From positions 1,696,001 through 1,760,000 of the forward strand of contig CBDEFM010000002.1 in NCBI GenBank assembly GCA_965237415.1: 64,000 nt of DNA, in the 5' to 3' direction. The DNA comes from Alphaproteobacteria bacterium. GTDB lineage: Bacteria > Pseudomonadota > Alphaproteobacteria > UBA828. Within the stretch, counting starts at the first letter, position 1. Every line of letters begins with the position of its first letter. Made by a program: the position numbers and the translations under genes. The notes under the pieces were generated by a model that saw only the letters and a program-made list of their open reading frames with translations, had not been told where the DNA came from and did not search any database. Positions 20,581-63,435 of this stretch are shown in pieces.

Positions 20581-20602
20581 AGGGCTAACGCGAGTCGAGA
20601 CG

Positions 20603-33412: not shown

Positions 33413-33573
33413 TTAGATCCTCTGCCCACACATAGGCGCAGTCTGGCCGTTTTCGGTCGCAATTCCGATAGTGCAGCGAACGCCGCGCGCCCACCCTTTC
33501 CCGAAGGGTGCGGCCGCGGGCAAACAACGATAGATTCCCAGCCATGGCAGCAGGTTCAGACGGCGGCGAAACC

Positions 33574-35109
33574 ATGACGAAGCGAGGCGGTCGCCGGGGC
33601 GGCGGGCGGGCGGCACGGCACGCGGAGCGGGTCGGCGGCAAGATCGAGCTTCTGCGTTACATCACACGCAACATTCCCTCGGTCGACCTCCTCAGCGATG
33701 AGGGGCTGGCGCTGATCGAGGAGAACGCGGAAACGATCCTCGAGGAGATCGGGATCGACTTCCGCGAGGATGCGGAGGCGCTCGAGCTCTTCAAGGATGC
33801 CGGCGCCGATATCGACGGTGAGCGGGTGCGCTTCCCGCGCGGGCTCGCGCGTCACCTGGTGTCGACCGCGCCTGCTTCCTTCACGCAGCTCGCACGCAAT
33901 CCCGAGCGATCGGTCGAGATGGGCGGCCGCAATCTCGTCTTCGCGCCGGTCTATGGCCCGCCCTTCATCTACGACATCGAGAAGGGGCGCCGCTACGCCC
34001 AGCTCGAAGACTTCGAGAACATCGTCAAGCTCGCCTACATGACGCCCTCGATGCACCACTCCGGCGGCACGGTGTGCGAGCCGGTCGACGTTCCGGTCAA
34101 CAAGCGCCATCTCGACATGGTCTACGCGCACATGCGCTATTCCGACAAGCCGTTCATGGGGTCGGTCACGCACCCCGAGCGCGCGGCGGATTCGGTCGAG
34201 ATGGCGAAGATCCTCTTCGGCGCAGACGTCGTCGATACCCAGACCGTGATGGTCAGCCTGATCAACGCCAACTCGCCGATGACCTTCGATGCCACCATGC
34301 TGGGTGCGCTCAAGGTCTATGCCCGTGCCAACCAGGGCAACCTCGTCACGCCGTTCATCCTGGCGGGCGCGATGGCGCCGGTCTCCCTTGCCGGCACGAT
34401 GGCGCAAACGCTGGCGGAGGCCCTGGCGGGCATGGCGCTCGTCCAGCTCTGCCGGCCGGGGGCGCCGGTCATCTTCGGCAGCTTCCTCAGCTCGATGTCG
34501 ATGCAGACCGGCGCACCGACCTTCGGCACGCCCGAGGCCACGCTCGCCATCTTCGGCCTCGCGGCGCTGGCCCGCCGGCTCGGCGTCCCGTTTCGCAGCG
34601 GCGGCTCGCTCACCGCATCGAAGTTGCCCGACGCGCAAGCGGCTTATGAAAGCGCCCAGACGCTATTGCCGACCGTACTGGCGGGCGCCAACTTCGTTCT
34701 CCATGGCGCCGGCTGGCTCGAAGGCGGACTGGCCAGCGGCTACGAGAAGTTCATCCTCGATGCGGACCAGATGGGCATGATGCAGGTCCTGGCGCGCGGC
34801 TACGACCTGTCCGCCAACGGCCAGGCGATGGACGCGATCAGAGAGGTCGGCCCGGGCAGCCACTATCTCGGCTGCAGCCATACGCAGGCGAATTTCGAGA
34901 CCGCCTTCTACCGCTCCGCTGTCGCCGACAATTCGAGCTACGAGCAGTGGCAGGCCGACGGCTCCAAGGATGCGACCGCGCGGGCACACGATATCTACAA
35001 GTCGATGCTGGCCAGCTACGAGGCGCCGCCCATCGACCCTGGGGTGGATGAGGCGCTCAAGGAGTTCATCGCCAAGAAGAAAGCGTCGATGCCCGACGCC
35101 TTCGCCTAG
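33574..35109 (+). CDS. Trimethylamine methyltransferase (MttB) family corrinoid methyltransferase, non-pyrrolysine type
   Basis: FAPVYGPPF, GGTVCEP.D, INANSP, GAPTFGTPE, DAQAAYES, LHGAGWLEGGL; no in-frame TAG. Confidence 0.92.
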   Translation: MTKRGGRRGGGRAARHAERVGGKIELLRYITRNIPSVDLLSDEGLALIEENAETILEEIGIDFREDAEALELFKDAGADIDGERVRFPRGLARHLVSTAPASFTQLARNPERSVEMGGRNLVFAPVYGPPFIYDIEKGRRYAQLEDFENIVKLAYMTPSMHHSGGTVCEPVDVPVNKRHLDMVYAHMRYSDKPFMGSVTHPERAADSVEMAKILFGADVVDTQTVMVSLINANSPMTFDATMLGALKVYARANQGNLVTPFILAGAMAPVSLAGTMAQTLAEALAGMALVQLCRPGAPVIFGSFLSSMSMQTGAPTFGTPEATLAIFGLAALARRLGVPFRSGGSLTASKLPDAQAAYESAQTLLPTVLAGANFVLHGAGWLEGGLASGYEKFILDADQMGMMQVLARGYDLSANGQAMDAIREVGPGSHYLGCSHTQANFETAFYRSAVADNSSYEQWQADGSKDATARAHDIYKSMLASYEAPPIDPGVDEALKEFIAKKKASMPDAFA

Positions 35110-35124
35110 TACGGTCCGGCCGGG

Positions 35125-35476
35125 CCCCCGGACCATGGTGCGGTGCAGGATGCGGGGCTTCTGCGCCAGGATCGCGCCATGCGTCGATTATTTTCCCGCG
35201 CGCGTATCCGCGCATCTTGCTCCCGCGCACGTAGCCGATCAGTTTGCCGCGCGCGTATCCGCGCGACGCAGTGCACGAACGAGCGAGCCGAGCCGGGCGC
35301 GATAGTCCGCAATTCTCACCAGGGTCGCGCCCCGCGCCTGGGGGGCGCGTCCCTTGATTCCGCGCGCACGACCCTGCGGGCGTGCGCGACATCCCACTCA
35401 TCCCACTTAATCCCGCTTAATCCCGGACAAGAATTTGTGTCTCGCCCGACGTGGAGGGGCAGAACCGGGCCGCGAC
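35125..35476 (+). repeat. Dispersed element copy 1 (palindromic box, short ORF, ATCCC decamer array)
   Basis: 5' box and 3' array shared with 44865-45625 and 49636-49938; 20-bp exact match ACCCTGCGGGCGTGCGCGAC (35371-35390 = 49762-49781). Confidence 0.85.
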
Positions 35477-35505
35477 CGTGGCGGGGGGATCGGCGTCAGG
35501 ACTGA
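35179..35505 (+). CDS. Putative element-borne small Arg-rich ORF (108 aa)
   Basis: ATG 46 bp after the CCATGG box, as in the other copies; reads in frame through TLRACAT and SHLIPLNPG. Confidence 0.35.
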   Translation: MRRLFSRARIRASCSRARSRSVCRARIRATQCTNERAEPGAIVRNSHQGRAPRLGGASLDSARTTLRACATSHSSHLIPLNPGQEFVSRPTWRGRTGPRPWRGDRRQD

Positions 35506-37502
35506 CGGCGGCGGCGATTGCGGCGGCGGGCAGCCGATGGCGCTGCCGTCTCTGCATCGGGCAGCGTGACGTGCTGCGGCAGATGGACGTACGCCGCCGT
35601 GCCGTGGGGAATCGCCATGGCATCGACGAAGTGACGCTGGAACGCGGGCTCGACGGCGGTCTCTACTTTCTCGATGGCACGCACCACGGTCTCGATCTCG
35701 TCGCGGGCCGCGCAATCGAGCAGGGCGATCAGCGCGCCCGTGCCCGCGGCGTTGCCCGCAGCAGACACCTTGTCGAGCGGGCAATCCGGGATCATGCCGA
35801 GGACCATGGCGTAGAGCGGGTCGATATGGCTGCCGAAGGCGCCGGTCAGCACGATCCGGTCGACCGTCGCGATCTCGAAGCGGTCCATGAGCAGCCTGGC
35901 GCCGGCCATGAGCGCCGCCTTGGCGAGCTGGATGGCGCGCACGTCGTTCTGATGGACGGAGATCGCAGGCTCGCCGGGGTAGAGCAGATAGCGGAAGGTC
36001 CGCCCCTCCTCCACGATACGCGCGGTGCGTGCCTGGGCACTGCCGGCGATCGTTCCGTCGGCGAGCAGGATGCCGGCGAGGTACATCTCGGCCAGCGCCT
36101 CGATGATCCCCGAGCCGCAGATGCCGGTGACGCCGGTGGCGGCGGTGGCCGCGGCGAACCCCTCCTCGTCGGACCAGAGGTCGCAACCTATCACCCTGAC
36201 CCTGGCCTCCAGCGTGTCCCGGTCGATACGCACCCGCTCGATCGCGCCGGGTGCCGCGCGCTGGCCGGCTTCGATCTGCGCGCCCTCGAAGGCCGGGCCG
36301 GTGGGCGACGACGCGGCCAGCAGCCGCTCCCTGTTGCCGAGCACGATCTCGGCATTGGTGCCGACATCGACGATCAACACCGTCTCCTCGGCCCGGTGCG
36401 GGGCTTCGGACAGAACGACGCCCGCCGCGTCGGCCCCCACGTGGCCGGCGACGCAGGGCAGCACGTAGACCCGCGCGCCGGCGTTGATATCGAGGTCGAT
36501 GTCGCCAGCCCTCAGCGTCAGCCCGTCCGACCGCGCGAGCGCGAAGGGGGCACCGCCCAGCTCGGTCGGGTCGATGCCGAGCAACAGGTGGTGCATGATC
36601 GGATTGCCGACGAAGGTCGCGTTCAGGATGTCGCCCCGCTCTGCGCCCGCCTCGTCCGCGACCTCGCCGATCAGCGCGTTTATCGCGCCACGCACGGCCT
36701 CGGTGAGCTCGGCCTCGCCGCCGGGGTTCATCATCACGTAGGAGACGCGGCTCATGAGGTCCTCGCCAAAGCGGATCTGAGGATTCATGCGCCCGGCGGA
36801 GGCCACGACCTCACCGCTCGAAAGCTCCGCCAGGTGGCAGGCGATGGTGGTCGAGCCGATGTCGAAGGCGGCGCCGAAGGCCCGGTCGCGGAAGCCGGGC
36901 CAGACGGCGACGATGCGCGTAGCCCCATGGACGGCGACCGTTACCGACCACTCGCCATCGCGAAGCGCGCGCTGGAGGCCTTGCAGGACGTGCAGGTCGC
37001 AGGCGAGATCGCTGAGCTCCCATTGGTCGCTGAGCGCATCGGCGAGGCGCTCGAAGTCGCCGCGCGGATTGTGCATGTCGGGCTCGGCGACCTCGACATA
37101 GTGCAGTCGGACGGCGGGATCGATGGTGAAGTCGCGCGCTTCGGCCCGCTTGCGCACGACCTGCTTGTGGACCTGGCTCTCGGGCGGCACGTCGATGACG
37201 AGGTCGCCCTGGATGAGCGCCGAGCAGCCCAGCCGGCGGCCCTCGGCGAGGGTGCGGCGGGAGGCATAGCGCGCCTCCTTCTCACCTGGCGGGCTCAGAT
37301 GGTCTGGCGCGCTCTCGATCCCGAACTTGGCGAAGTGGCCCGTGCCCGCCTCGACCTGACAGCGGCCGCAGAGGCCCCGGCCCCCGCACACCGAATCGAG
37401 ATCGACGCCGATGGAGCGGGCGGCATCGAGAACCGACGTGCCAATCGCGAACCGCCCGCGCTTGCCGGACGGGGTGAAGACGACGAACGCGGGTTCGGTC
37501 AT
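35496..37502 (-). CDS. ASKHA-domain reductive activator of corrinoid proteins (RACo/DUF4445) with 2Fe-2S domain
   Basis: CGGRGLCGRC, DIGSTT, VGNPIMHHL, GHVGAD, DVGTNAE, GPAFEG, GICGSG, GNAAG. Confidence 0.92.
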   Translation of the reverse strand: MTEPAFVVFTPSGKRGRFAIGTSVLDAARSIGVDLDSVCGGRGLCGRCQVEAGTGHFAKFGIESAPDHLSPPGEKEARYASRRTLAEGRRLGCSALIQGDLVIDVPPESQVHKQVVRKRAEARDFTIDPAVRLHYVEVAEPDMHNPRGDFERLADALSDQWELSDLACDLHVLQGLQRALRDGEWSVTVAVHGATRIVAVWPGFRDRAFGAAFDIGSTTIACHLAELSSGEVVASAGRMNPQIRFGEDLMSRVSYVMMNPGGEAELTEAVRGAINALIGEVADEAGAERGDILNATFVGNPIMHHLLLGIDPTELGGAPFALARSDGLTLRAGDIDLDINAGARVYVLPCVAGHVGADAAGVVLSEAPHRAEETVLIVDVGTNAEIVLGNRERLLAASSPTGPAFEGAQIEAGQRAAPGAIERVRIDRDTLEARVRVIGCDLWSDEEGFAAATAATGVTGICGSGIIEALAEMYLAGILLADGTIAGSAQARTARIVEEGRTFRYLLYPGEPAISVHQNDVRAIQLAKAALMAGARLLMDRFEIATVDRIVLTGAFGSHIDPLYAMVLGMIPDCPLDKVSAAGNAAGTGALIALLDCAARDEIETVVRAIEKVETAVEPAFQRHFVDAMAIPHGTAAYVHLPQHVTLPDAETAAPSAARRRNRRRRQS

Positions 37503-37506
37503 GCCG

Positions 37507-38430
37507 TCACGCGCTGACGGCGGCGCCCTCCCGCCGGCGCCGGCGCCCCTCGCGCCGGCCGCGCCTGCCCTCGCCGCCCTCGCCCACCGGCTCGCGGAAG
37601 CGGGTGAGCCAGCGCGCGCAGTCGGGATCGTTGCCGTTCATCATGTCGGCGGCCATGACGGCGGCGATCTCCGCCTCGTGCAGCGGGTTCATGATGGCGG
37701 ATGTCAGACCCGAGCGCGCCGCCATACTGAGGAACGCCGCGTTCACGCTCGGCCGGTTGGGCAGCCCGAAGCCAACGTTCGACGCGCCGCAGGTCGAGTT
37801 CACGCCGAGCTCCTCCTTGAGCCGGCGCATGATGGCGAAGGCCTGCACGCCCGCCGTGTTGATCGCACCGATCGGCATGACCAGCGGATCGACCACCACG
37901 TCCTCCTTGGGGATGCCGTGGTCCATGGCGCGTTCGACGATCTTCCTGGCGATCCCGAAGCGGACGTCCGGGTCTTCCGAGATGCCGGTCTCGTCATTGG
38001 AGATGGCGACGACGGCGCAGCCGTACTTCTTCACCAGCGGCAGCACGGATTCCAGCCGTTCCTCCTCGGCGGTGACCGAGTTGAGCAGCGGCTTGCCTTG
38101 ATAGACCGCGAGCCCGGCCTCGAGGGCCGCCACGATCGAGCTGTCGATGGAGAGCGGCAGGTCCACCAGCGACTGCACGAGCTGGATGCAATCGGCGAGG
38201 ATTTTGGGCTCGTCGGCGAGCGGCACGCCCGCGTTGACATCGAGCATGTGCGCGCCGGCCGCGACCTGTGCCAGCGTGTCCCTTTCCACCCGCGAATAGT
38301 CGCCCGCCGCCATCTCGGCCATCAGCAGCTTGCGGCCGGTGGGATTGATCCGCTCCCCGATGATGCAGAAGGGCTCGTCGAAGCCGATCACCACCTCCTT
38401 CGTGGCGGAACTGACGACGGTGCGGGTCAT
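37507..38430 (-). CDS. Pterin-binding methyltetrahydrofolate:corrinoid methyltransferase module
   Basis: IIGERINPTGRK, LDVNAG, LSIDSS, DPLVMP, GASNVGFGLP. Confidence 0.92.
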   Translation of the reverse strand: MTRTVVSSATKEVVIGFDEPFCIIGERINPTGRKLLMAEMAAGDYSRVERDTLAQVAAGAHMLDVNAGVPLADEPKILADCIQLVQSLVDLPLSIDSSIVAALEAGLAVYQGKPLLNSVTAEEERLESVLPLVKKYGCAVVAISNDETGISEDPDVRFGIARKIVERAMDHGIPKEDVVVDPLVMPIGAINTAGVQAFAIMRRLKEELGVNSTCGASNVGFGLPNRPSVNAAFLSMAARSGLTSAIMNPLHEAEIAAVMAADMMNGNDPDCARWLTRFREPVGEGGEGRRGRREGRRRRREGAAVSA

Positions 38431-39113
38431 GGCGCCTCTCGGTTCTCGCCGGCGGCGGCGGCGGCCTCGATGAAGTCCGCCAGCTCGCCATAGCCGACAT
38501 GACGATGGACATAGTTGAGCCCCAACCGTTCGGCCGCCACGCGGGCCTTGGCTTCGAGCGCCGCGTCGCGGACCTGGGAGATGTAGACGACGTTCGTGTA
38601 GTTGCCGAAATAGTCGTCCCGCAGCTCGGGCCAGCGGTCGAGGCCTAAGCCCTCGATGATCAGCCGGTCGAAGTGGCGCACCATGTAGTCGGTCAGGAAG
38701 AACTGGGTCGGGTCGTCGTCGGTGATGGCGGCGAACGCGTCCTGCCCGGTGTAGAAGGCGTAGCAGTGCGGCCCCTCGATGCGCTCCACACCCTCTTCCT
38801 CGATCACCTTGTCGAGCAGGCCGCCGGTGCCGCAATCGCCGTAGGCCACGAAGATGGCGCGATAGTCGCCCTTATTGGCCTGGATCTTCGCGCGCACCGC
38901 CTCCGGGATCAGGTGCGGCCGGTTATGCAGCTTGGCGGGCAGGCAGGTGATGTCGATGTGTTCGAAGCCATTGGCCGCGCGGAAGTCGACGATCTCGCGC
39001 GCCAAGGCCCCGCAGGCGATGACGAGGGCACGGGCCGGGCCGGCACTCGCGAATGCGGCCTCGTCGTCGACCGAGAGGTCGGCGTGCTCGGGCGGCGCCA
39101 TCCGGGCTGTCAT
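38427..39113 (-). CDS. DUF1638 domain protein
   Basis: IACGALARE, LPAKLHNRP, YGDCGTGG, GPHCY, FFLTDY. Confidence 0.85.
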   Translation of the reverse strand: MTARMAPPEHADLSVDDEAAFASAGPARALVIACGALAREIVDFRAANGFEHIDITCLPAKLHNRPHLIPEAVRAKIQANKGDYRAIFVAYGDCGTGGLLDKVIEEEGVERIEGPHCYAFYTGQDAFAAITDDDPTQFFLTDYMVRHFDRLIIEGLGLDRWPELRDDYFGNYTNVVYISQVRDAALEAKARVAAERLGLNYVHRHVGYGELADFIEAAAAAGENREAP

Positions 39114-39122
39114 AGGCAGGGC

Positions 39123-39833
<711 letters not shown>

Positions 39834-39973
39834 CGGTCCCCGTCCTGTCCCGCTCGTGCCTGCGCTGGATACCGAGAGAAGCGTGCGCTCGCCCCCGGCA
39901 CAGCCCGTCTTCCTGGGTCTCGGCTCAACGCCCGAACCCACTTGTCTATTCAATTACAGGCGCGTCTCAAGAC

Positions 39974-43393: not shown

Positions 43394-44133
43394 TCGTCCT
43401 CTTCACCGATTTCGGGCCGGGCGGGCCCTACACGGGCCAGATGAAGGCCGTGCTCGCGCGCGAGGCGCCGGGCACGCCTGTGATCGACCTCGCGGACGAC
43501 CTGCCCGCCTGCGAGCCCGAGCCCGCCGCCTATCTGCTCGCGGCGTTCGCGCCGGCGTTTCCGCCGGGCGCGGTCTTTGTCTGCGTGGTCGACCCCGGCG
43601 TCGGCAGCGCCAGGGCGCCGGTCGCGCTCAGTGCCGGCGGGCGCTGGTATGTCGGCCCCGACAACGGCCTTCTCGCCATCGTTGCCCGACGCGCCGGCGA
43701 TGCCCAGTGGTTCACCATCACCTGGAGACCGCCCACCCTCTCCGCCTCCTTCCACGGCCGCGATCTCTTCGCACCGGTGGCGGCCCGGTTGGCCCGCGGC
43801 GAAGCGGTGCCGGGAACGGCGATCGAGGGCGCCGCAACGGTCGGTGCCGCATGGCCGGAAGACCGCGCGGCAATCGTCTATATCGACCCCTACGGCAACG
43901 CGATGACGGGGATACGCGCGGCCCAACTGGCGGAGGACACGGTCGTCGTCGCGGGCGCCCGGCGGCTCGGGCGGCTCCGCACGTTCTCCGACGCGGCGCC
44001 GGGGGCGGCCTTCTGGTACGAGAACGCAAACGGGCTCGCCGAAATCGCGGTCAACCAAGGCCGGGCGGATCGGGTGCTGGGGCTCAGGGTGGGAACACCG
44101 GTCAGCATCGAGACGGCGGGTCGCGACGGATGA
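43390..44133 (+). CDS. DUF62 family SAM hydroxide adenosyltransferase (chlorinase/fluorinase superfamily)
   Basis: LFTDFG, VVDPGVG, GPDNG, SFHGRDLF, YIDPYGN, EIAVNQG. Confidence 0.9.
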   Translation: MIVLFTDFGPGGPYTGQMKAVLAREAPGTPVIDLADDLPACEPEPAAYLLAAFAPAFPPGAVFVCVVDPGVGSARAPVALSAGGRWYVGPDNGLLAIVARRAGDAQWFTITWRPPTLSASFHGRDLFAPVAARLARGEAVPGTAIEGAATVGAAWPEDRAAIVYIDPYGNAMTGIRAAQLAEDTVVVAGARRLGRLRTFSDAAPGAAFWYENANGLAEIAVNQGRADRVLGLRVGTPVSIETAGRDG

Positions 44134-44855
44134 CGGGCTGGCGGCCGAACGGGGACCAGATTCGCGCGGGCGCACTTGCCGGTGCCGACCTCTCGCGCTT
44201 CGACCTGCAGGGCTTTCACTTCCGCCGGGCCGACCTGCGCGGGGCGAGCTTCGCCGGAAGCATCCTTCGCGAGGTCGATCTCTGGTCCGCCGACCTCACC
44301 GGCGCCGACCTCACCGGCGCGAACCTGCGCCTGGCGACGTTCAAGGGCGCAAACCTGCAAGGCGCGCGGCTCGCCGGCGCGGACCTCTGGAGCGCCGATC
44401 TCAAGGTCGCCGACCTGGGCGGCGCCATTCTCTCGGAGTGCAATCTCGCTCAAGCCGAGCTCGCCGGCGCGAAGTGCCGGGGGGCGGACTTCAGCTGCGC
44501 TGAGCTCTACTGCGCCGACCTTCGCCTCGCCGACCTGGAGGACGCCAATCTCGGCCGCGCGGACGGGCGCCTCGCGAAGCTGGAGGAGGCGGTGCTGATC
44601 GGCGCCAACCTGCGCGATGCGAACTTCTCGGGCGCGAGCTTCAAGCGCGCGCGGCTGGCCACGGCCGACCTGGGAGGCGCCAACCTGCGCGAAGCGAATT
44701 TTCGCGAGGCCGACCTGATTCGTGCCGACTTTCGCGGGGCAGAGGTCGCCGACGCCTTCTTCGGCCAAGCCAATCTCGACGGCACCGTGATGCCGGACGG
44801 CACCATCGAATCGACCACCCTGCGTCACTGGGCGCCGCCCGAGGAAGACGCGTAG
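44130..44855 (+). CDS. Pentapeptide repeat protein
   Basis: Continuous A[D/N]LxG/xA repeats ending in LDGTVMPDG. Confidence 0.93.
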   Translation: MTGWRPNGDQIRAGALAGADLSRFDLQGFHFRRADLRGASFAGSILREVDLWSADLTGADLTGANLRLATFKGANLQGARLAGADLWSADLKVADLGGAILSECNLAQAELAGAKCRGADFSCAELYCADLRLADLEDANLGRADGRLAKLEEAVLIGANLRDANFSGASFKRARLATADLGGANLREANFREADLIRADFRGAEVADAFFGQANLDGTVMPDGTIESTTLRHWAPPEEDA

Positions 44856-44864
44856 GCGTCCGAG

Positions 44865-45625
44865 CCCCGCACCATGGTGCGGTGGAGGGCGCAGGCTCGG
44901 CGCGCCAGCATCGCGTCATGCAAAACGAAACCCAAAAGACAACGACAGCCGCGACGTTCGGGCGTTCCTCGATCGCGCGGCTGCCGCCGGAGCTTCGCGA
45001 GGCCGTCGATGCGGCCATCGCAGACGGCGCCACCATCGACGAAATCGCGGATCTCATCCGGGGCGAGGGCGGCGCGTGCTCGCGCTCGGCCGTCGGCCGC
45101 TACACCAAGAACGTCCGCGACCTGATTCGCCAACAGCAGGAGGCCGACCGCGCCAACGAGGCGTGGGTGCGCGCGCTCGGCGAGCGCGCCGAGGGTCGGG
45201 CCGGGCTCATCCTGATCGAGACCCTGCGGACTTTGACGCTCTCCACCCTGGCCGAACTCAGCAAGCGCGAGACGCCGCCGACGCCGGAAGAGCTTGGCCG
45301 TCTCTCGCTGGTCCTCAAGCGCATCGAGGGCACGGACAAGCTCCGCCTCCAGCGGGAGCAGGCGGCGGCGAAGGCAGCCAGGGCCGCGCCCGGCGCGGGG
45401 CAGGCACCGGGGCAGGCACCGCCCAGGAAGGGCCTCTCGCCCGAGGCCGTCGCCGCCATCCGCGAGGTCGTCGAGGGGAGGCCCCGCCCGCCTGGGCGGG
45501 CCGTCTCATCGGCGCCGGTCGACCCGTGGAATCCTTCGGAATCCCACTTAATCCCACTTAAACCCGGCGAATCCCGCACAGGAATTGAGTTTGGCCCGAG
45601 TGGGATGGCGGAGCCGGACAGCGAC
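44865..45625 (+). mobile_element. Dispersed element copy 2, carrying a Mu-like Gp27/DUF3486 gene; mobility inferred only
   Basis: Perfect palindrome GCACCATGGTGC (44869-44880); decamer array 45521-45580; 3' tail aligns with copy 1 up to GCGAC. Confidence 0.6.
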
Positions 45626-45697
45626 AGTCGCGAAATTGCGGGCTACGCGCCCACGTCGACGATGGCCACCACTGGGCCGCCGCCCTGCGGGCCCTGA
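44918..45697 (+). CDS. DUF3486 / Mu-like phage Gp27 family protein
   Basis: [32 protein letters not shown], helical middle region, [13 protein letters not shown]; low-complexity tail overlaps the convergent gene. Confidence 0.78.
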
Positions 45698-46737
45698 TGC
45701 ATCGCATCGACCGAGACGAACACGGCGGGATCGCCGATCGCCGCCGCCGCGACACCGCCCACGGCGCCCTTGGAATGGCGGTGATGGTGGACGTCGGAAT
45801 CGTCCAGCATGATCTGGCGGCGCCCGCGCAAGCGCGCGGTGCGGTCGGCCTCGCACTTGATGAAGCAGTTGACGAGCTTGTCGCCGAGATCGGCGGCGCG
45901 CGGGCGCTCCGGCAGGTTGAGGCCGGCGTTACGGATGCCGTCGTAGATGCCGTCGATGTCGAGGGCGTCCTGCATCACGCCGTGGCCGATGCGGAAGCGC
46001 CCGCCGGCCCCCGGCGCGTTGCCGAAGAGGACGATCTGCCCGCGGTCGAGCTCGACGCCAGAGGAGCAGGAGGCGACCGAGGAGTAGAGATCAAGATTGC
46101 GGCAGATTTCGTGGGCCGCCGGCATGCCGACTTCGCCGAGCGCGACGGCAATGCCGAGGCCGGTGGTGCCGTTGGAGACCCCCATCGATTCATGGACCTC
46201 GCAGGCCACGGTCTCGCCCCGCCCGTGCGCGTCCTGCACCGTGTCGATGGTGAGCAGCGGCGTCTTGGTCTGCACGTAGTGGACATTCGCAGGGTCGCCG
46301 ATGCCCGCATCGGCCATCGCCGCGCGCACGCTGTCGGCGATCTTCTCCACCATCGCCGGCCGGCCGATGTCCTCGGGCAGGATTGGCGCGCTCATGGCGG
46401 TCCCCATGGCGAGGCGCAGCGTGTCGTCGGGCCCGCTCTCATCGTTGCGGGCGAAGACGGTCGCATGGGGGGTGAGCACGCCATCGCAGCCGCCCGACCA
46501 GACCATGGGGATTTCGCCGACCTCGACTTCGCTGCGCGTGCCGTGCTTGAGGAGGACGCCGCGGAAGGCGCTGTCCGACAGGATGCGGGTGAAGTCGTTG
46601 ACCCCGCCGTTGCCCTCCGTCTTACCGATGACGGCGACGACGGAATCCGCCGCCATGCGGCCCGACGCGATGAGTTCCTCCAGGCCCGAGGCATCCGCGA
46701 CCGATTTGATCTCGATCTTCGCAACGTCGATCGCCAT
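45643..46737 (-). CDS. Ring-opening cyclic amide hydrolase (AtzD/barbiturase family), barbiturase-like
   Basis: [43 protein letters not shown]. Confidence 0.9.
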
Positions 46738-49509: not shown

Positions 49510-49635
49510 CTGCGGTCTCACCCCCGGCGGATAGCACTGCGGTTGGCCACGGATCGGAACGGTCGAGCGTTTAGCATATCGCCCGGCTGCAGGCGACCGG
49601 CCGCGGAGGAGGAAAGGCGGTCTCCCCTCTCTACT

Positions 49636-49938
49636 CCCCCGGACCATGGTGCGATGTGCAGTGCCAGGCTCCTGCGTCAGGCTCACGCCATGGAGCGCCA
49701 AACTGGGTTGGTCGCGGTGGGCACGTTGAGCGAGCGGGCGGGAAACGATCTCGCGCTCAACACCCTGCGGGCGTGCGCGACCCGGGTCCGGGCCGCGGCC
49801 GCCAGCAACAACTGTCTGCCGGGCCATCCAGTGGGAGGCTTCGCCGTGAACGCTCCGTCGGGCCGCCGGCACCGGTCCGGCGGAACCCCACTCATCCCGC
49901 CTATCCCACTTAATCCCGCTGAATCCCGCCTCAAATTA
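49636..49938 (+). repeat. Dispersed element copy 3, in the gltX/comEC divergent intergenic region
   Basis: CCCCCGGACCATGGTGCG identical to copy 1; ATG at 49690; five CCC tracts at 49886-49927. Confidence 0.85.
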
Positions 49939-54471: not shown

Positions 54472-56211
54472 CTATTCCGCAGCCTCCGGCAGCGGCGCGT
54501 CCTCGCCGTAGCGCGCAACCCAGGACGGCTCGTAGCCGTAGTCTCGCGCCGCAGCCTCGGCGCTGACATAGCCCTCCAGCACGTCCTCGACCACTGCACG
54601 CGGGTCGCGCTCGCGCGGCTCGCCGTAGCCGCCTCCGCCCGGCGCCTTGACCGAGACCCGCTCGCCGGGGCGGATTGGCACATTCGAGTACTTGCTGGTG
54701 GAGATCTTGCCAAACGCCGCGCCGACCGTGGTCCAGCGGTTGGCGCCTTCCTCCCGGTAGAGGGTGGCGCCCGGAATGCCGGAACCGCCCCCGTAGAGGC
54801 CCCAGGCGACCTTTTTGTGCTTGTTGGTCATCTGGCTGATCGTCACCTCGCCGGTGCAGAGCATGGTCTTGGAGATGCTCAAGCCCCCTCGATGCGCTCC
54901 GGCGCCGCCCGAATCCGGACGCAGCGCATATTCCTCGACGATCCACGGGAACCGCGTCTCGAACACCTCGGTCGGCGTGTTGGCACAATTGCCGTTGATC
55001 GAATCCGTGGCGTCGTTGCCATCGGCAAAGCTGCGCCCGCCATAGCCGACATAGGAGAAATCGAAGGCGCCGATGGGCTCGTCGTTGCGCTTGTCGTAGC
55101 CGCCGAAGACAAAGCAGCCGTGGGTGGTGCCTTCCGAGGCCATTACGCGGTCGGGCGCCGCCGGCGCCATGGCGCCCAGGATGATGGCGACGATGAGCGG
55201 ATGGGTCTCGGTATTGCCGCCCACCTCGGAGCCGGGATAGTTCACGTTCATCACGGAGCCGGCCGGTGCAATCACCCGGATCGGGCGGAAGCACCCCGAG
55301 TTCTTCGGAATTGTCTGGTCGGTGAGGTGCAGCATGGCGTTGTAGGAGGCCGACCAGGCGACGCCGAGGGTGGCGTTGATCGGCCCCAGTGCCTGCGCCG
55401 AGGAGCCGGTGTAGTCGATCACGACTTCGTCGCCCTGGACGTGAACGGCGCAGCGGATGGTGAACTCCTTGTCCTCAATGCCGTCATCCTCCAGCCCGTC
55501 CTCGAAGCGGTAGCAGCCGTCGGGGAAGGCCCCGATCTCGGCCCGCATGCGAGATTCGGAATAGTCCATGAGGTCGATGACGGTGCGGCGGAAGGTCTCG
55601 CGGCCGTACTTGCCGATCAGCTCCTTCATCCGCGCCTCGCCGAGATCGACGGCGGAGATCAGCGCCCGGATGTCGCCATAGTTCTGGCGCGGGGTGCGGA
55701 CGTTGGCGAGCATCAGCTTCCAGACCTCGACCACGTCCTCGCCGCGCTTCTTGATCTTGACCGGGGGCACGCGCAGCCCCTCGTGGAAGATCTCGGTGGC
55801 CTCGCCGGGGAAGCCGCCGGGCACCATTCCGCCGGTCTCGACGAAGTGGCCGATGGCGACGGCGAAGCCCATTGGCTCGCCGTCGACGAAGATCGCCTTG
55901 AACATAGTGTGCTCGGGCGTATGCAGGCCGCCCCGGTAAGGATCGTTGTGGACGATCACGTCGCCCTCGTCGATCTCGGAGAGCGAAATCTCCTTCACCA
56001 TCGAGCGCACGAGCAGGGGCACGCCGCCGATCTGCGCGGGGCAGAATTCGGCTACGGCGATCATCTCGCCTTCGGTGTTGGCCAGCGCGCAGGTGAAATC
56101 TTCGGCTTCGGAGAAGATCGTGGAATAGGCGGTCTTCTGCACGTTGACGCCCATCTCGCGGCAAATCGCGACCATGGCGGATTCGATGATGTTCATCGTG
56201 ACCATGTCCAT
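54472..56211 (-). CDS. Hydantoinase B/oxoprolinase family protein
   Basis: TAYSTIFSE, HNDPYRGGLH, EIFHEG, DSGGAG.HRGG, PGGGGYG. Confidence 0.92.
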   Translation of the reverse strand: MDMVTMNIIESAMVAICREMGVNVQKTAYSTIFSEAEDFTCALANTEGEMIAVAEFCPAQIGGVPLLVRSMVKEISLSEIDEGDVIVHNDPYRGGLHTPEHTMFKAIFVDGEPMGFAVAIGHFVETGGMVPGGFPGEATEIFHEGLRVPPVKIKKRGEDVVEVWKLMLANVRTPRQNYGDIRALISAVDLGEARMKELIGKYGRETFRRTVIDLMDYSESRMRAEIGAFPDGCYRFEDGLEDDGIEDKEFTIRCAVHVQGDEVVIDYTGSSAQALGPINATLGVAWSASYNAMLHLTDQTIPKNSGCFRPIRVIAPAGSVMNVNYPGSEVGGNTETHPLIVAIILGAMAPAAPDRVMASEGTTHGCFVFGGYDKRNDEPIGAFDFSYVGYGGRSFADGNDATDSINGNCANTPTEVFETRFPWIVEEYALRPDSGGAGAHRGGLSISKTMLCTGEVTISQMTNKHKKVAWGLYGGGSGIPGATLYREEGANRWTTVGAAFGKISTSKYSNVPIRPGERVSVKAPGGGGYGEPRERDPRAVVEDVLEGYVSAEAAARDYGYEPSWVARYGEDAPLPEAAE

Positions 56212-56253
56212 GACGGGTTCCTTTCCCTCCCGCGCGTGGGCCTGGATCGGGGC

Positions 56254-58293
56254 TCAGGCCTGGCGCGCGATCTCGCCGATCAGGATGTTACCGTAACGAT
56301 CGATCCATACCGGCTGGCCGGGGCGGACGACGGTGACCGAGGCGGGCTCCTCGATCAGCGCAGGGCCCTCGAAGCTGTGCCCCTCGCGGAGCGCGGCACG
56401 ATCATGGATCGGGGTCTCCACCCAGCCCTCCTCAAAGAGCACCCGCCGCCTGCTCGCCGGCGACGGCTCGCCCTCGGCCGGGCCGACTTCGGCAAGCCGC
56501 GGCTTATCGGTCACCGAGACGGCCGTGACCTTGACCGATGTCATCTCGATTTTCTCACCCGGAATATCGAAATTGAAGCGATCCCGGTGCGCCCGATGGA
56601 AGGCCTCCCATAGCCCCGGCAACGTGGTCTCGTCGAAGCGGTCGAAGGCGATGGGCACGTCGAGCTCGTGGTTCTGCCCGAGATAGCGCATCTCCAACGA
56701 CCGGAGGATCTCGATGTTCTCGGTGTAGCCCTGTTGCTCGAGCGCGGCGATGCCTTCGCGGATCAGGTCCGAGAGCACGCGATTGGCATGGTCCTCGTCG
56801 AAGGCGGCCGAGGTCATCTGCGCTGTCCGCTCCAGGTCGACCCGCGCGTCGGTCATCAGAAAACCGAAGGCCGAGAACTGGCCAGGATGGTTGGGCACGA
56901 TGCCGCTCGGAATGTTGGCGTGGACCATGAGGTCAGCGACGTGGACCGGCCCCGCGCCGCCGAATGCCAGAAGCGTGAAGTCGCGCGGGTCGAGGCCACG
57001 CTCGGTCAGCACCGAGCGCAGCGCGCCGATCATGTTGTTGTTGGCGATCTGCACCATGGCGAGCGCGGTCTCTTCGACCGGCTTGTCGATGGCGCTTGCG
57101 ACCACAGCGATCGCCGACTCTGCGGCATCCGGGTCGAGCGCCATGGCACCGCCGAGAAAGTTCGCAGGATTGATGCGGCCGAGTGCGAGGTTGGCGTCGG
57201 TCGCGGTCGCCTGGGTGCCGCCGAGGCCGTAGCAGGCGGGCCCCGGGTTGGCGCCGGCGCTTTCCGGCCCCATGCGCAGCATGCCGCCCTTGTCGATCCA
57301 GGCGAGCGAGCCGCCGCCCGCGCCCATGGTGCGGATATCGATCATGGGGATCTGGATCGGCAGGCCGAACTCGATCTCAAAGCTCGTGGTAAAGCTCTCC
57401 TGGCCGCCCACCACGGTGGAAACGTCGGTGGACGTGCCGCCCATGTCGAGGGTGACCAGGTGATCGACGCCGACGCTGCGGGCGATCTGCTTGGCGCCCA
57501 CAACGCCCCCGGTGGGGCCGGAGAGGGTCATCTGAATGGGGTGGCGGGCGGCCTCCTCCAGAGTCATCTCGCCGCCGTTGGACTTGATCGCGGCGACCTG
57601 ACGGGTGATGCCCTTCTCGTCGAGCCGCGACCGCATGGTGCCGAGATGGCGGCCCACGACGGGCTTGATGTAGGCGTCGGTGATGGTGGTGGAGGAGCGT
57701 TCGAACTCCTTCCACTTGGGCAACACCTCGTAGGAAATGCTGACCGGCAGGCCCGGACATTCCTCGGCGAAGATCGCTTGAGCGGCGCGTTCATGGTCGG
57801 GCGTCACGAAGGAGAAGAGGAAGTTGATGGCGACCGCCTCGACACGGCCATGGGCCTTGATCTCGCGCGCGATGGCGCGCACCCGGTCGGTATCCAGCGC
57901 ACGATAGACCTCGCCCCTGGCCAGGATCCGCTCATCCACTTCGTAGCAGTGGCGCCGCTTCACCAGCGGCTTGGCCTTGACCCAGGTGATGTCGTAGTGG
58001 CTCTTGCGCTTGCCCCGCTGGATGAAGGGCACGTCGCGAAACCCGGTCGTGGTCAGGTAGGCGACCGTGGCGCCCTTGCGCTCGAGGATCGCGTTGGTGG
58101 CGATTGTCGTGCCGAAGCGGATGTTGCCGATGGCGCCCACATCGCCGGAGCGATCGAGGCCGTCGACGATGCCGTCCATCGGGTCGGCCGGTGTGGAAAG
58201 GGTTTTCCAGACGTCGACTGCCTGGGTTTCAGGGTCGTAGCGGACGAAATCCGTGAAGGTTCCGCCCACATCGATCCCGACCAGATCGCTCAT
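56254..58293 (-). CDS. Hydantoinase A/oxoprolinase family ATP-binding subunit
   Basis: GIDVGGTFTD, LSGP.GG, DMGGTSTD, GAGGGS, FGGAGP. Confidence 0.93.
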   Translation of the reverse strand: MSDLVGIDVGGTFTDFVRYDPETQAVDVWKTLSTPADPMDGIVDGLDRSGDVGAIGNIRFGTTIATNAILERKGATVAYLTTTGFRDVPFIQRGKRKSHYDITWVKAKPLVKRRHCYEVDERILARGEVYRALDTDRVRAIAREIKAHGRVEAVAINFLFSFVTPDHERAAQAIFAEECPGLPVSISYEVLPKWKEFERSSTTITDAYIKPVVGRHLGTMRSRLDEKGITRQVAAIKSNGGEMTLEEAARHPIQMTLSGPTGGVVGAKQIARSVGVDHLVTLDMGGTSTDVSTVVGGQESFTTSFEIEFGLPIQIPMIDIRTMGAGGGSLAWIDKGGMLRMGPESAGANPGPACYGLGGTQATATDANLALGRINPANFLGGAMALDPDAAESAIAVVASAIDKPVEETALAMVQIANNNMIGALRSVLTERGLDPRDFTLLAFGGAGPVHVADLMVHANIPSGIVPNHPGQFSAFGFLMTDARVDLERTAQMTSAAFDEDHANRVLSDLIREGIAALEQQGYTENIEILRSLEMRYLGQNHELDVPIAFDRFDETTLPGLWEAFHRAHRDRFNFDIPGEKIEMTSVKVTAVSVTDKPRLAEVGPAEGEPSPASRRRVLFEEGWVETPIHDRAALREGHSFEGPALIEEPASVTVVRPGQPVWIDRYGNILIGEIARQA

Positions 58294-58350
58294 GGTGCCC
58301 CGCCCCGTCGGCCGCTCGGTTGATCGGATGCGTGGAGCGGCGGTGCGCGC

Positions 58351-58714: not shown

Positions 58715-61700
58715 TCACTCCGCCGCTTCGTCCGCGCCGGGCTTGTAGCCGTAGTCCCGCGCCGCCTCGGCCTCAGTGAGATAACCGCGGCTGAGGTCGG
58801 CGGCGACGCGCTGTCGGGAGCGTTCGCGCGGATCGCCCAGGCCGCCGCCGCCGGGGGTCCGCACCTGCACCGTGTCGCCCGGCGCCAGATGATAGCCCTC
58901 GCCCTTCGAGAGATGCGGCGGCTCCTCCACTTGGTTGCCGCGGCGGACCTCGATGCGGTTGACCGCGCCGGGCAGACCGCCCGCGAGGCCATGCGGGCCG
59001 GTGCGCCCGTGGTCCATCATGAACGACGCCTTCGCCTCGCCCCGTAGCAGGCGGACGCGGTAGCTCACCCCGAAGCCGCCCCGGTGCCGCCCGGCGCCGC
59101 CCGAGCCCTCCCTCAGCGCATATTCCTCGAACAGGATCGGGTAGTGCTGTTCCAGGATCTCCGCCGGCTGGGTCTTGGAGATGCCGACGGACGAGCAGCC
59201 GTTGGTGAGGCCGTCGTCTTCCCACCAGCCGCCGTAGCCGCCGCCGGAGAAGATGTACATCACGTAGCGGCGTCCCTCCTCCGGGTCGTCGCCGCCGAGG
59301 CTGAAATTGCCGCTGGTCCCGGCGGGGGCCGCGAACATGCGCTCCGGCATGGCCTGGCCCAAAGCGCCGAACACCGCCTCCATGATCCGTTGCGCCGTCT
59401 CGGCCGCGCAGCCCGAGACCGGCCTTGGGTACTCGGCATAGAGGAAGGTGTCGTGGGGCGGCGTCACGGTGATCGGGCGGAAGCAACCAGCGTTGATCGG
59501 CACGTCCGGGAAGATGTGCTTGATCGCGCAATAGACCGAGGCCAGCGTCGTCGCCCAGACCGAGTTGACCGGCCCGCGGCAGGGTGGGCTGGAGCCCTCG
59601 AAGTCGACGGAGAGGTTGCTGCCCTCCACCGTGACCCGCACACGAACCTCGAGGGGCTTATCGTCGACACCGTCGGAATCCATGTAGCTGGAGAAGACGT
59701 ACGCTCCGTCGGGAATGGACGCGATGTGAGCGCGCATCCGGCGCTCGGAACGCTCCTTGAGCACCTCGATGGCGGCGTTGACTGTCGCCTCGCCGTGCTT
59801 GTCGAGGAGTTGGGTCAGCCGCCGCTCGCCGACCGAGAGCGCTCCGATCTGGGCGCGGATGTCGCCGATGCGTTCCTCCGGCACCCGGATATTGGCGAGC
59901 ACGATCTGCAAGATGTCATCGTCGAGCACGCCGCGCCGGTGCAGCTTGACCGGCGGCAGCCTGAGCCCCTCCTGCTGGATCTCGGTCGCCTGGGAGGGGA
60001 AGCCGCCCGGCACCATGCCGCCGGTATCGGGCCAGTGGCCGGTGTTTGAGAGATAGGCCCAGAGCCGACCCTTGTAGAAGAAGGGCCGCACCATCTTCAC
60101 ATCCATCAGGTGGGTGCCGCCAAAATAGGGGTCGTTGACCAGCACGATGTCGCCGGGCTCCAGGTCGTCCCGCGCCTCGATCACCGCCTGTGTGGTGGAT
60201 TGCATGACACCGAGGAAGATCGGCAGACCGAGCTCGCCTTGCGCGATGATCTGGCCCGTGTCGGGCGCATAAATTCCGTTGGAGCGGTCGTAGGCCTCCG
60301 AGATCACCGGCGAGAACGAGGTGCGCTGATGCACCAGGTCCATCTCGCTCGCGACCTGCTCGAGGCCGCTCTCGATCACCGCAAGGGTGACCGGGTCGAG
60401 ATCGCGCTCGCCACCCTCTCCCGCCTCTTCGGCAGCCCGCGGCACAGTCAGCACGAGGTTGCCGAGGGCGTCGGCACGGGCCTCGGAGCCCGGCTCCACC
60501 AGGATCGTGGTGTCGAGCTGCTGGATGACGGCGGGGCCTGCGATCGTCGCATCGCCGGGCAATGCCTCGCGCCGGTAGATCGGCGTCTCCGCCCAGACGC
60601 CCTCGAAATAGACCGGCCGCGTCTCGATCAGAGCCGCTTCCAGCGTCGCCCCGCCGTCCTCTGGCGCGAGCGTGAGGTCGAGCGGCGGGCGGATACCGCG
60701 CACGGTGGTCCGCAGGTTGACCAGGATGGGCTGCATCTCCGGCAGCACGATGTCGAACCGCTCGCGGTAGAGCGCCGCGAAGGCATCGCGGACGGTTATC
60801 GCCCTGAAGCCCTCGTCGCCCACCGGCACGCGGAACACATGACTCTGGCCGCGGTAGAAGAGGTCCGCCTCGTGCTCGACCTCCACCCTATCGACCGTGA
60901 CTCCCTCTTCTGCGAGCAGCGCCCGGCCCTCCGCCGCCTGGTCCGCCAGGATGCTGTCGGCCGCCCCCGCGTCCACGTCCTCCAGCGGCTGATGCAGGGT
61001 GCGGACGAAGTCGTGGCGCACGTCCGCGAGCACGCAGCCGAGTGCCGACGTGATGCCGGGGAAGCGCGGCACCAAGACGTGAGGCACGCCGAGCTCGCGG
61101 GCGATGGCAGTGGCGTGCATCGGCCCCGCGCCGCCGAAGGCGAAGAGGGCGAAGTCGCGGGGGTCGTGCCCCTTGTCCACCGAGACGAGCCGCGCCGCGC
61201 CCGCCATCTGATGGTCCACCACCTTGAGGATCGCGGCGGCGGCCTCCGCCTCGTCGAGGCCCAGCGGCGCGCCGATCCGTTCGCGGACGATCCGGCGCAC
61301 ATCGTCGATATCAGGCGGGCTGTCGAGGCCGCCAATGGCGCGTGCATCGATGCGGCCCAGCAGCAGGTTGGCATCGGTCACCGTGGGCTCGCGCCCGCCC
61401 TTGCCGTAGCAAATCGGACCCGGCGCCGCGCCGGCACTCTCGGGCCCGACGCGCAGGATGCCGCCTTCGTCGACCCGTGCGATGCTGCCGCCGCCGGCGC
61501 CGATGGTCTGGATGTCCACCATGGGCACGCGGAGCGGCATGCCGTAGGCGATGTCCTTCTCCGTCGTCGTGGCCGGCACCCCACCCCGCACGATGGCGAT
61601 ATCGAAGCTGGTGCCGCCCATGTCGCAGCTGATGAGGTTGGGGAAGCCGGCGGTGGCGCCCAAACGCGCGGCGGCGATGACGCCCGCGGCCGGCCCCGAC

Positions 61701-62482: not shown

Positions 62483-63435
62483 GGGCTGCCGTCTGCGCCG
62501 GCATCGGGCGCGGGCAACCCCAGGCCCTCCAGCGCGTCGCGCATCAGCTCCAACGCCATTCGCAGGAGGCGGGCGGAGGCCTCCGCGGTCATGAAGGCTG
62601 CGTGGGGCGTCAGCGTCGCGTTCTCCAACGCCGCCAGGGGATGGTCCCCGTCGATCGGCTCGTCGGCGAAGACATCGAGACCCGCTGCCCGAATCGTGCC
62701 GCCCTTCAGCGCCTCGACCAGGGCCGGCTCGTCGATGATTGCGCCGCGCGCGGTGTTGATCAGCATCGCGCCCCGGCGCATCAGGGCGAGGCGGCGCGCG
62801 TCGATGATGCCCCTGGTCTCGTCGTTGAGGCCGAGATGGAGCGACACCACATTGGCCTCGCCGAGCAGTGCGTCGAGGGTCTCGGCCGGGGTACAGGGGA
62901 GGTCGGACGGCACGCCGCTCCGGTTCCAGGCAATGACGTTCATGCCGATCCCGTTGCCGAGGCGCACCATCTCGCGGCCGACGCCGCCGGTGCCGACCAC
63001 CCCGAGGGTCTTGCCCGCGAACTCCACGCCATCGAGCGTGCGCCACGAGCCGGCGCGCAGCGCGCGGTCCATCCGCGCGGTCTGGCGGCCGCAGTCGAAC
63101 ATCAGCGCGAGCGCGTGCTCGGCAACCGTGACGTCGCCATAGCCCTTGATGGTGCGCACCTCGATGCCGAGCCGCTCCGCCGCCGCCACGTCGATGTAGC
63201 TCGACGCGCCGGTGCCCATGAAAACGATCACCTTGAGGGCGCGGCAGGCGGCAAGCACCTCCTCCGGCATGTAGGTGTGGTCGTTGATGACCCCGACCGC
63301 ATCGCCGACGTAGGCCGCCGCGTCGTCGCCCGGCACGTCGTCGACGGTCATGGCGAGGTCGGGAACGATCGCTCGGAGCTCGTCGTCGTAAAGCTCGGCC
63401 AGAAATGACGGACAGTCGAAGAAGATCGCGCGCAC
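62479..63435 (-). CDS. D-isomer specific 2-hydroxyacid dehydrogenase family
   Basis: TVAEHA, GVVGTGGVG, INTARG, GLDVFADEP, LTPHAA. Confidence 0.92.
   Translation of the reverse strand: MRAIFFDCPSFLAELYDDELRAIVPDLAMTVDDVPGDDAAAYVGDAVGVINDHTYMPEEVLAACRALKVIVFMGTGASSYIDVAAAERLGIEVRTIKGYGDVTVAEHALALMFDCGRQTARMDRALRAGSWRTLDGVEFAGKTLGVVGTGGVGREMVRLGNGIGMNVIAWNRSGVPSDLPCTPAETLDALLGEANVVSLHLGLNDETRGIIDARRLALMRRGAMLINTARGAIIDEPALVEALKGGTIRAAGLDVFADEPIDGDHPLAALENATLTPHAAFMTAEASARLLRMALELMRDALEGLGLPAPDAGADGSP

Follow-up and report, generated by a model that had tools for sequence, protein, structure and literature searches.

The stretch of DNA considered here (the window) comprises 64,000 nucleotides of contig CBDEFM010000002.1 from an alphaproteobacterium (NCBI GenBank assembly GCA_965237415.1) and carries an open reading frame (ORF) for a protein of the phage Mu Gp27/DUF3486 family, the presumed small terminases of Mu-like phages. 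The ORF lies between a pentapeptide-repeat gene and a convergent gene for a ring-opening amidohydrolase, and it forms the body of a cassette of approximately 0.72-0.78 kb in which a 16-bp near-palindromic box, a leader of about 35 nt, the Gp27/DUF3486 gene, an array of 10-bp ATCCC repeats and a short post-array module follow one another in that order.

We report the family membership of the protein, the boundaries of the cassette and the linkage of the gene to its repeats, together with the occurrence of the cassette in multiple copies, its partial synteny, its concerted evolution, a ratio of nonsynonymous to synonymous substitution (dN/dS, or omega) below 1, its gene-less derivatives and its lack of terminase partners. 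An earlier account of this DNA, made from the letters only (the sequence-only reading), had singled out the gene as an orphan outside any prophage; the multi-copy cassette with a sharp left and an approximate right boundary, the concerted evolution and the two gene-less cassettes in the window go beyond that account.

The encoded protein and the repeats that flank its gene

The ORF begins with an ATG in the conserved context described below, though an alternative GTG start at 44882, inside the box, would give an ORF of 271 aa (44882..45697, + strand), and residue numbers in the Pfam match refer to this longer reading. The ORF is intact, and the peptides quoted from it in the sequence-only reading are all present in its translation. 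The match to Pfam PF11985 (Phage_Mu_Gp27; E 9.1e-24, 85.2 bits against a cut-off of 28) spans residues 31-199 of the 271 and model positions 1-171 of 173, and no other Pfam family exceeds its cut-off in the protein; PHROG 426, annotated 'terminase small subunit', matches with E 5.4e-28. In the ESM Atlas, 29 of 30 feature matches fall within the PF11985 set and the neighbours are viral PF11985 clusters.

An AlphaFold2 model built on a 58-sequence alignment (mean pLDDT, the predicted local distance difference test, 81.6) has a three-helix helix-turn-helix (HTH) at approximately residues 18-49, with HTH helices at 24-35 and 40-49 and a pLDDT of 95-98 over residues 21-70. Long helices are predicted at 56-90, 94-116 and 123-156, then a short helix at 175-185 and a tail of low confidence. 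The long helices of this monomer would be compatible with oligomerisation, and a homo-oligomer prediction for four copies of residues 14-195 scored 0.16 against a mark of 0.42, a value that weighs neither way. Amongst the viral structures of BFVD the model best matches a DUF3486 protein from a phage (E 6e-4). When the PDB was searched by profile, StbA from plasmid R388 matched the HTH weakly (7pc1, E 0.0019), and ArdK on a direct-repeat element stood at rank 3 in the Foldseek search of the PDB (E 0.95). Pfam, PHROG, AlphaFold2 and the ESM Atlas thus bear out the identity as a Mu Gp27/DUF3486 HTH protein that had been proposed for this gene; there is a DUF3486/HTH match, where the same proposal had reckoned with the possibility of none.

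Table 1. Positions in the window of the parts of the cassette, of two gene-less derivatives and of the adjoining genes
Feature	Position	Strand	Basis or content
Palindromic box, 16 bp, CCGCACCATGGTGCGG, left end of the unit	44867..44882		alignment, blastn
Conserved leader, from box to ATG	44883..44917	+	alignments
Gp27-like (DUF3486) ORF, 259 aa, ATG start	44918..45697	+	ORF call, Pfam, PHROG
PF11985-matching region	44972..45478	+	residues 31-199 of the 271-aa reading
Family-specific C-terminal extension, ending ...SAPVDPWNP	45479..45535	+	kept in all 9 aligned copies
Array of five in-register 10-bp units with an ATCC(C/T) core	45531..45580	+	Tandem Repeats Finder, pattern search
Post-array module, ending at the stop codon of the convergent gene	45581..45640	+	alignment; inverted-repeat search
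Mini-cassette A, gene-less	35124..35483	+	box 35128-35143, leader and ATG, about 200 bp of unrelated DNA, array 35391-35430, post-array module
Mini-cassette C, gene-less	49635..49933	+	box 49639-49654, leader and ATG, about 190 bp, array at about 49884-49933
Pentapeptide-repeat gene, upstream neighbour, outside the unit	44142..44855	+	Pfam PF00805, E 4.9e-50
AtzD/TrzD-type ring-opening amidohydrolase gene, convergent neighbour, outside the unit	45643..46737	-	Pfam PF09663, E 1e-135; NCBIfam TIGR02714, NF052395

The ORF reads through the decamer array before its stop; its last base (45697) lies beyond the first base of the convergent ORF (45643), an overlap of 55 bp, so that the coordinates agree with the earlier description of an ORF that crosses the array and stops 55 bp inside the convergent gene. 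Over the Pfam domain the G+C content of third codon positions (GC3) is 0.91, as against 0.87-0.91 in the neighbouring genes, and it falls to 0.57-0.63 from about 45510 onward, by which the last third of the ORF resembles non-coding DNA that stays open by chance.

The limits of the cassette were drawn by comparison with at least ten related loci (L001-L010), all from metagenome-assembled genomes of uncultured 'Alphaproteobacteria' or 'Rhodospirillales'; copy numbers given below are lower bounds. When 44000-46500 of the window was compared with these ten loci by blastn, similarity was confined to the interval from 44860/44930 to 45534/45590 and the flanks were unrelated. Copies that match through the box have left limits at 44860-44867. 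The box, with the consensus CCG(G/C)ACCATGGTGCGG, has nothing conserved 5' of it and therefore marks a sharp left boundary; it is present in 11 of 11 gene copies (the window and the ten loci), about 35-75 nt 5' of a conserved MQ(N/D)E start, and its palindrome is imperfect at the fourth position in 10 of 13 sequences. From the box and leader of 13 sequences RNAalifold predicted 7 pairs, practically without covariation, the invariant box being uninformative, and this leaves a reading of box and leader as an RNA or a single-stranded DNA hairpin neither supported nor excluded. On the right the boundary is approximate, with similarity to about 45590 and, against two copies, to about 45640.

Tandem Repeats Finder places the decamer array of the window at 45540-45565, and the pattern ATCCCRCTNA matches nine times in the window where 0.86 matches are expected, nine or more being reached in none of 100 shuffles. 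A phased ATCCC array lies 3' of the gene in seven of the eight copies with an available 3' flank, the exception being the degenerate L005; the 3' flank is unreadable in L003 and L010, which end at contig ends, and in the truncated L009. Arrays range from about 3 units (L001) to about 12 (L004). By eye, some units read ...TCCCGGAC(A/C), to be set beside CCCCGGACC in the left half of the box. The suggestion of the sequence-only reading that the gene belongs with its own repeats consequently holds as regards linkage (box 11/11, array 7/8), and the binding itself we infer. Treatment of the array as a coding decapeptide repeat was rejected on the grounds of its 10-bp period, its freely varying unit number, stops within it in L007 and L008, arrays that occur without the gene and the loss of the codon-position GC bias.

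The post-array module includes an inverted copy of the decamer, the arms of the inverted repeat being at 45534-45548 and 45599-45613. The window type of this module is common to L001 and to a gene-less cassette of the window, mini-cassette A (blastn of 45541-45632 against 35400-35483, 71%), and a second type is common to L002, L004, L006 and L008. At gathering thresholds Rfam found nothing in the cassette, in the window and seven loci scanned. Integration linked to tRNA genes was rejected, a tRNA being near only one of the ten loci (L004) and none near the cassette of the window.

Cassettes sit in repeat-rich intergenic DNA, and other dispersed repeats crowd their flanks: in L002 (5470-5520 and 5840-5880), in L007 and L009 (about 5870-5930) and in many tails of the family proteins. 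L002 has a palindromic element containing ...GCCCGGACTTGTTCCGGGCAT..., which adjoins a GIY-YIG gene; a module translated as ...ISLNGGRSLRSLAYAPFGAA... comes after the array in many copies; and the unrelated loci L004 and L005 have in common, at the left end and about 60 nt 5' of the box, a sequence GGGAG(A/G)G..GGCCGGGGTGAGGAG..GGGCGTTCCC..CTCGG that resembles repetitive extragenic palindromic (REP) elements.

Relatives, selection and gene-less derivatives

A word-indexed protein search returned 804 proteins at E <= 1e-3, of which the best 120 are 71-100% identical to the window protein and 223-435 aa long. These 120 align from the N-terminus to ...PVDPWNP and through the translated array, after which they diverge; a core of 200-209 aa is uninterrupted in 117 of them. 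In those 117 proteins the tail past VDPW measures 7-176 aa (median 89), a spread which implies that the family has no conserved stop codon. An exhaustive search of cluster representatives gave 725 clusters at E <= 1e-3 and 39 at E <= 1e-30. Members of the phage type, approximately 175-190 aa in length, align to the query only as far as residue 185-195 or so. The alignment thus ends near residue 190, and the extension ...RPxxPxRxVTSxPVDPWNP is specific to the chromosomal family, where it is evidently protein-coding because third-position differences inside it are synonymous. Precomputed Pfam assignments for 26 longer relatives, examined for a fused catalytic domain, gave PF11985 alone in 25 and no domain in one. 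One relative, P0129 (394 aa, 54% identity), appears to contain the C-terminal module twice (...GISPE...PVTSVPIDPW... and ...GLSPE...PLISAPIDPRNPAESHFIP...), which suggests a tandem duplication or a recombination between cassettes.

An assembly can hold two, three or more copies. The same 6.17-Mb chromosome carries both L001 and L002, one assembly is the source of L007, L008 and L009 and a different one that of L003 and L010, and among the matches listed a source contig of the same size recurs for two or three different family proteins in seven cases (three proteins for 5457807 and 4781976; two for 1096153, 40695, 172291, 1575262 and 2564898). The intact copies at the related loci also match PF11985.

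Three pairs of loci are syntenic across assemblies and all carry the cassette. L005 and L006 share the order DUF3179, cassette, hydrolase, metK, trmB, rimP, nusA; L008 and L010 share an FMN oxidoreductase and a GMC oxidoreductase before the cassette; and L002 and L003 share a class II aldolase about 3.4 kb upstream. Between L005 and L006 the cassette gene has a dS of 0.347 and an omega of 0.285, and six neighbours have dS of 0.18-0.44 and omega of 0.06-0.37, so that the gene falls within the dS range of its neighbours, as expected for vertical descent at the site. Nine copies compared pairwise (36 pairs) have dN/dS values of 0.21-0.73, below 1 in every pair. Judged from these sequence comparisons, the gene is under relaxed but apparently real purifying selection, with the qualification that strong GC3 bias can distort dS.

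In the maximum-likelihood tree the copies are not grouped by syntenic locus; they group by genome with 99-100% support (window, L001 and L002, 100/100; L007, L008 and L009, 100/100), which argues for gene conversion or turnover within genomes. Some copies are broken: codon 83 of L001 has changed from TGG to TGA, the L009 copy is truncated at about residue 107, within a region rich in insertion sequences (IS), L008 lacks a start, and many database relatives are frameshifted or internally deleted, though some of these frameshifts may be long-read assembly errors. The copy in the window is far from the single, neutrally decaying remnant of a deleted prophage against which the sequence-only reading had guarded: the gene is multi-copy, its dN/dS is 0.2-0.7, and the dS of the syntenic pair is like that of housekeeping neighbours.

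Two further cassettes in the window, mini-cassettes A and C, have no gene. In A the leader, ending ...GCCATG, occupies 35144-35181, and in C, with the same ending, 49655-49692; both then pass into unrelated DNA. Their arrays lie about 250 bp past the leader in the same orientation as the box, and the two align well only at their ends, with an exact 20-mer in common at different internal positions (35371 and 49762). All three cassettes of the window have the same orientation. L002 contains a box (10937) and leader (10953-10990) without a gene, and bare boxes are found in L001, L002 and L004. The recurrence of the ends without the gene identifies both ends of the cassette as conserved dispersed modules, a pattern such as is seen in pairs of autonomous elements and miniature inverted-repeat transposable elements (MITEs), or in sites kept for a protein that acts in trans. 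Inside mini-cassette A there is a 27-bp tandem repeat (35192-35264, 2.9 copies, consensus TTTCCCGCGCGCGTATCCGCGCAC). Mini-cassette C lies between the divergently transcribed gltX (-) and comEC (+), in their promoter region; lexA is found just 3' of comEC, and the repeats of the cassette, if bound by protein, could affect these genes.

Genomic partners of a terminase are missing throughout. A Pfam scan assigned none of 40 ORFs of the window (5 + 35) to a phage structural or large-terminase family, and none of 84 ORFs flanking the ten related loci to a large terminase, portal or capsid; the latter are housekeeping and metabolic genes with some IS transposases. Head-morphogenesis neighbours (large terminase and portal) are found at none of the 11 loci, within the flanks sampled, from which it appears that the family no longer has the genomic partner that defines a small terminase. 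The placement of the gene outside any prophage therefore stands, and the term 'orphan' is apt for the want of a large-terminase partner and inapt for the number of copies. A collection of 50,697 phage records yielded only two weak matches to the family (38-42% identity), in both of which a DUF3486 gene of about 175 aa directly precedes a gene of about 520 aa, followed in Chromohalobacter phage YPCBV-1 by a DUF935 gene. A plasmid collection gave no match to the family.

Setting of the cassette in the window

The identities of the two adjoining genes (Table 1) agree with the pentapeptide and barbiturase-like genes named in the sequence-only reading; by blastn the pentapeptide-repeat gene has no similarity to any of the ten related loci. 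The window holds metabolic genes along with gltX, comEC and lexA, and its GC skew is too weak for assignment of the replication strand. The region looks specialised for the catabolism of cyclic amides and N-heterocycles, given its hydantoinase, amidase, AtzD-like and other amidohydrolase genes. Hydantoinase/oxoprolinase A and B genes occur several times (58715-63460, -; 54472-58350, -; 20510-22387, +), and one open frame of 1581 codons amongst them fuses HyuA and HyuB domains.

An Rfam match to PYLIS_3, the pyrrolysine insertion sequence of mttB, lies at 34609-34711 (+; 48.7 bits against a gathering threshold of 38) within an MttB-family gene (33472-35109; Pfam MTTB, E 1e-232). The ORF is uninterrupted for 545 codons from stop to stop and so has no in-frame TAG to recode; its product is probably a non-pyrrolysine homologue of MttB. 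Genes for a corrinoid protein, a RACo activase and a DUF1638 protein lie nearby (35496-39953).

Interpretation and comparison with known systems

The explanation that we favour, with a probability of about one half, is that the cassette is a phage module of small terminase (TerS) and recognition site which has escaped from its phage and become a self-perpetuating genomic repeat, as distinct from a prophage remnant. The HTH protein would bind, in a sequence-specific manner, the repeats that flank its gene in the cassette; the palindromic box ahead of the start codon would serve as operator and the direct-repeat array, with one site per helical turn, on one face of the helix, as a landing pad of many sites; and persistence would come from selection at the level of the element, through mobilisation in trans or gene conversion. 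The recognition logic is that of small terminases at pac or cosB sites and of StbA-type HTH proteins at arrays of direct repeats. A self-perpetuating repeat is proposed because there are several copies per genome, homogenised within genomes, with degenerate copies and gene-less derivatives that retain only the ends, and we rank it first since this evolutionary pattern fits it better than it fits a family of host regulators or plain debris.

Several points weigh against this explanation. The sample of related loci is small (ten, an undercount), and the binding of protein to box or array is a proposal from sequence and a structural model. Foldseek found nothing in the PDB at E <= 0.001, the Sf6 small terminase appearing at rank 28 with E 3, and a consensus scan of 44000-46000 found neither a sigma-70-like promoter nor an intrinsic terminator. 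By Pfam, and in the longer relatives, the unit has no transposase, recombinase or other catalytic domain; its two ends are unlike each other; alignment, in which only the 5' side was examined, gave no conserved target just 5' of the box; and the right boundary is too fuzzy for a search for target-site duplications, so that mobility is conjectural. The three syntenic pairs argue that many copies have been static since the species diverged. A dN/dS of 0.2-0.7 denotes weaker constraint than in most neighbours, and GC3 bias may distort it, while many of the frameshifted proteins may reflect long-read assembly errors in place of decay.

The best placed of the alternatives, though we think it doubtful, is an active packaging-recognition module, in which the small terminase would bind the pac-like array and recruit in trans a large terminase supplied by a resident Mu-like prophage, by a different phage or by a gene transfer agent (GTA). 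Chromosomal packaging would then start at the cassettes, and capsids would be diverted (phage interference), the cassette would be transduced along with its neighbours, or both would happen. The family identity with the presumed small terminases of Mu-like phages is in keeping with this, as is the phage homologue directly upstream of a gene of large-terminase size (with DUF935 next in YPCBV-1), yet neither the window nor the ten loci have a large terminase, portal or capsid gene, and the two phage matches at 38-42% identity amongst 50,697 records are weak ones. Phased short repeats in or beside the gene recall the layout of pac and cosB sites, and the three window cassettes point the same way; the copies lie between conserved housekeeping genes, where homologous recombination after transfer would reinstall them, and are homogenised within lineages. 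The conserved C-terminal extension of about 20 aa and the lack of a fixed stop, on the other hand, are both absent from the phage homologues. It is by their C-termini that small terminases contact the large subunit, so that partners may have changed. As regards interference with phages, there is no match to a PADLOC defence model (PADLOC-DB 2.0; at E <= 0.01 neither the protein nor the products of the two genes upstream gave a defence family).

Less probable again is a selfish 'packaging driver', a minimal unit of TerS and pac at which the terminase of a helper phage or GTA would start headful packaging. The cassette and its housekeeping neighbours would be transduced preferentially, and homologous recombination would reinstall the cassette at the same locus in related cells. 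Such a driver would explain the absence of a transposase, the syntenic sites between conserved genes, the homogenisation within lineages, the recognition sites in cis and the gene-less derivatives served in trans.

We consider equally unlikely a domesticated DNA-binding family, in which the proteins would be host regulators or nucleoid-associated proteins and ordinary paralogues of one another, kept by the host, the box would be an operator for autoregulation, and the arrays, close to the ends of genes, would have a regulatory or architectural role for the host. Autoregulated HTH genes typically have a palindrome directly before the start codon, and here the box lies just 5' of the start; to this may be added the weak HTH profile match to StbA of R388 (E 0.0019), the host-like codon usage (GC3 0.91), syntenic retention across species, a dS like that of housekeeping genes and an omega below 1. 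Against it, the copies within a genome are nearly redundant and are homogenised instead of diverging in specificity, the ORF has no conserved stop and its tail varies from 7 to 176 aa, copies are lost by nonsense mutation, IS truncation and internal deletion, and the gene-less cassettes retain only their ends, all of which suits a selfish repeat better than a family of regulators.

That the copies are functionless debris, whether decaying remnants of Mu-like prophages or a dead repeat family beside unrelated REP-like sequences, is very improbable: broken copies (the TGA at codon 83 of L001, the truncated L009, the startless L008 and the frameshifted or internally deleted database proteins), other dispersed repeats in the same intergenic regions and an ORF tail that is variable read-through would suit it, but dN/dS is below 1 in 36 of 36 pairs, the core is uninterrupted in 117 of the 120 best relatives, the syntenic L005 and L006 copies are intact at dS 0.35 and omega 0.285, the box (11/11) and array (7/8) are linked to the gene at fixed positions, and no other prophage gene occurs amongst the ORFs scanned in the window and in the flanks of the ten loci.

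The protein represents a new subfamily within a family already known; to judge from our literature searches, neither the organisation of the cassette nor its life as a multi-copy chromosomal unit has been described. In the portions of the literature that these searches returned, Phage_Mu_Gp27 was not found, DUF3486 was found only in a phage genome description, and a search combining small terminase, gp27 and bacteriophage Mu gave only unrelated work on phage collections. Small-terminase-like proteins are known from phages and phage satellites, and a phage-free family would represent a new route by which a recognition module persists. If the protein binds its own repeats, it provides a compact natural pair of protein and site; if it still contacts a terminase, the cassettes mark preferred starting points for transduction in little-known environmental Alphaproteobacteria.

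Amongst known systems the nearest is phage Mu Gp27/DUF3486 itself, with which the window protein shares whole-domain profile matches, a predicted HTH with long helices and viral PF11985 neighbours in the Atlas. The phage members, of about 175-190 aa, are immediately followed by a gene whose length, about 520 aa, is that of a large terminase; the assignment of Mu gp27 as small terminase was, we take it, itself made from gene position. The window family differs in having terminase neighbours at 0 of 11 loci, in its multiple copies, and in its conserved ...PVDPWNP extension, its read-through of the repeat array and its lack of a fixed stop. With Sf6 gp1 there is nothing in common beyond a generic HTH (the Foldseek match of rank 28, E 3).

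Short phased repeats in or beside the gene for the small terminase are the usual layout of pac and cosB sites, as in SPP1, P22 and lambda. By analogy, the cassette resembles SPP1 G1P-pac, P22 gp3-pac and lambda gpNu1-cosB in having the gene for a putative recognition protein with short phased repeats in it or adjoining it, and may be likened to the TerS of phage-inducible chromosomal islands (PICIs) and Staphylococcus aureus pathogenicity islands (SaPIs) in being uncoupled from the phage's own genome. Unlike both groups it carries neither an integrase nor a large terminase, nor genes for replication or capsid remodelling; it measures only about 0.75 kb and occurs in many copies per chromosome at partly syntenic sites.

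Pairs of autonomous elements and MITEs, and REP elements with their associated tyrosine transposases (RAYTs), share with the cassette its multiple copies, gene-less derivatives with common ends, solo end fragments, clustering of copies by genome and an intergenic position near repeats and IS elements. The cassette differs from them in having no transposase and no HUH/Y1 domain in the Pfam scan, and in the stability of some copies across species; its ends, a palindromic box and a direct-repeat array, are not inverted repeats of each other, and the likeness to REP elements is limited to the dispersed palindromic box. StbA binds arrays of direct repeats, and the StbA-stbS and ArdK systems of plasmid R388 have, like the cassette, an HTH protein encoded beside phased direct repeats; the similarity to StbA and ArdK lies below or near significance and concerns the HTH only, and whereas theirs is a plasmid partition or regulation locus, the cassette of the window is chromosomal and multi-copy.

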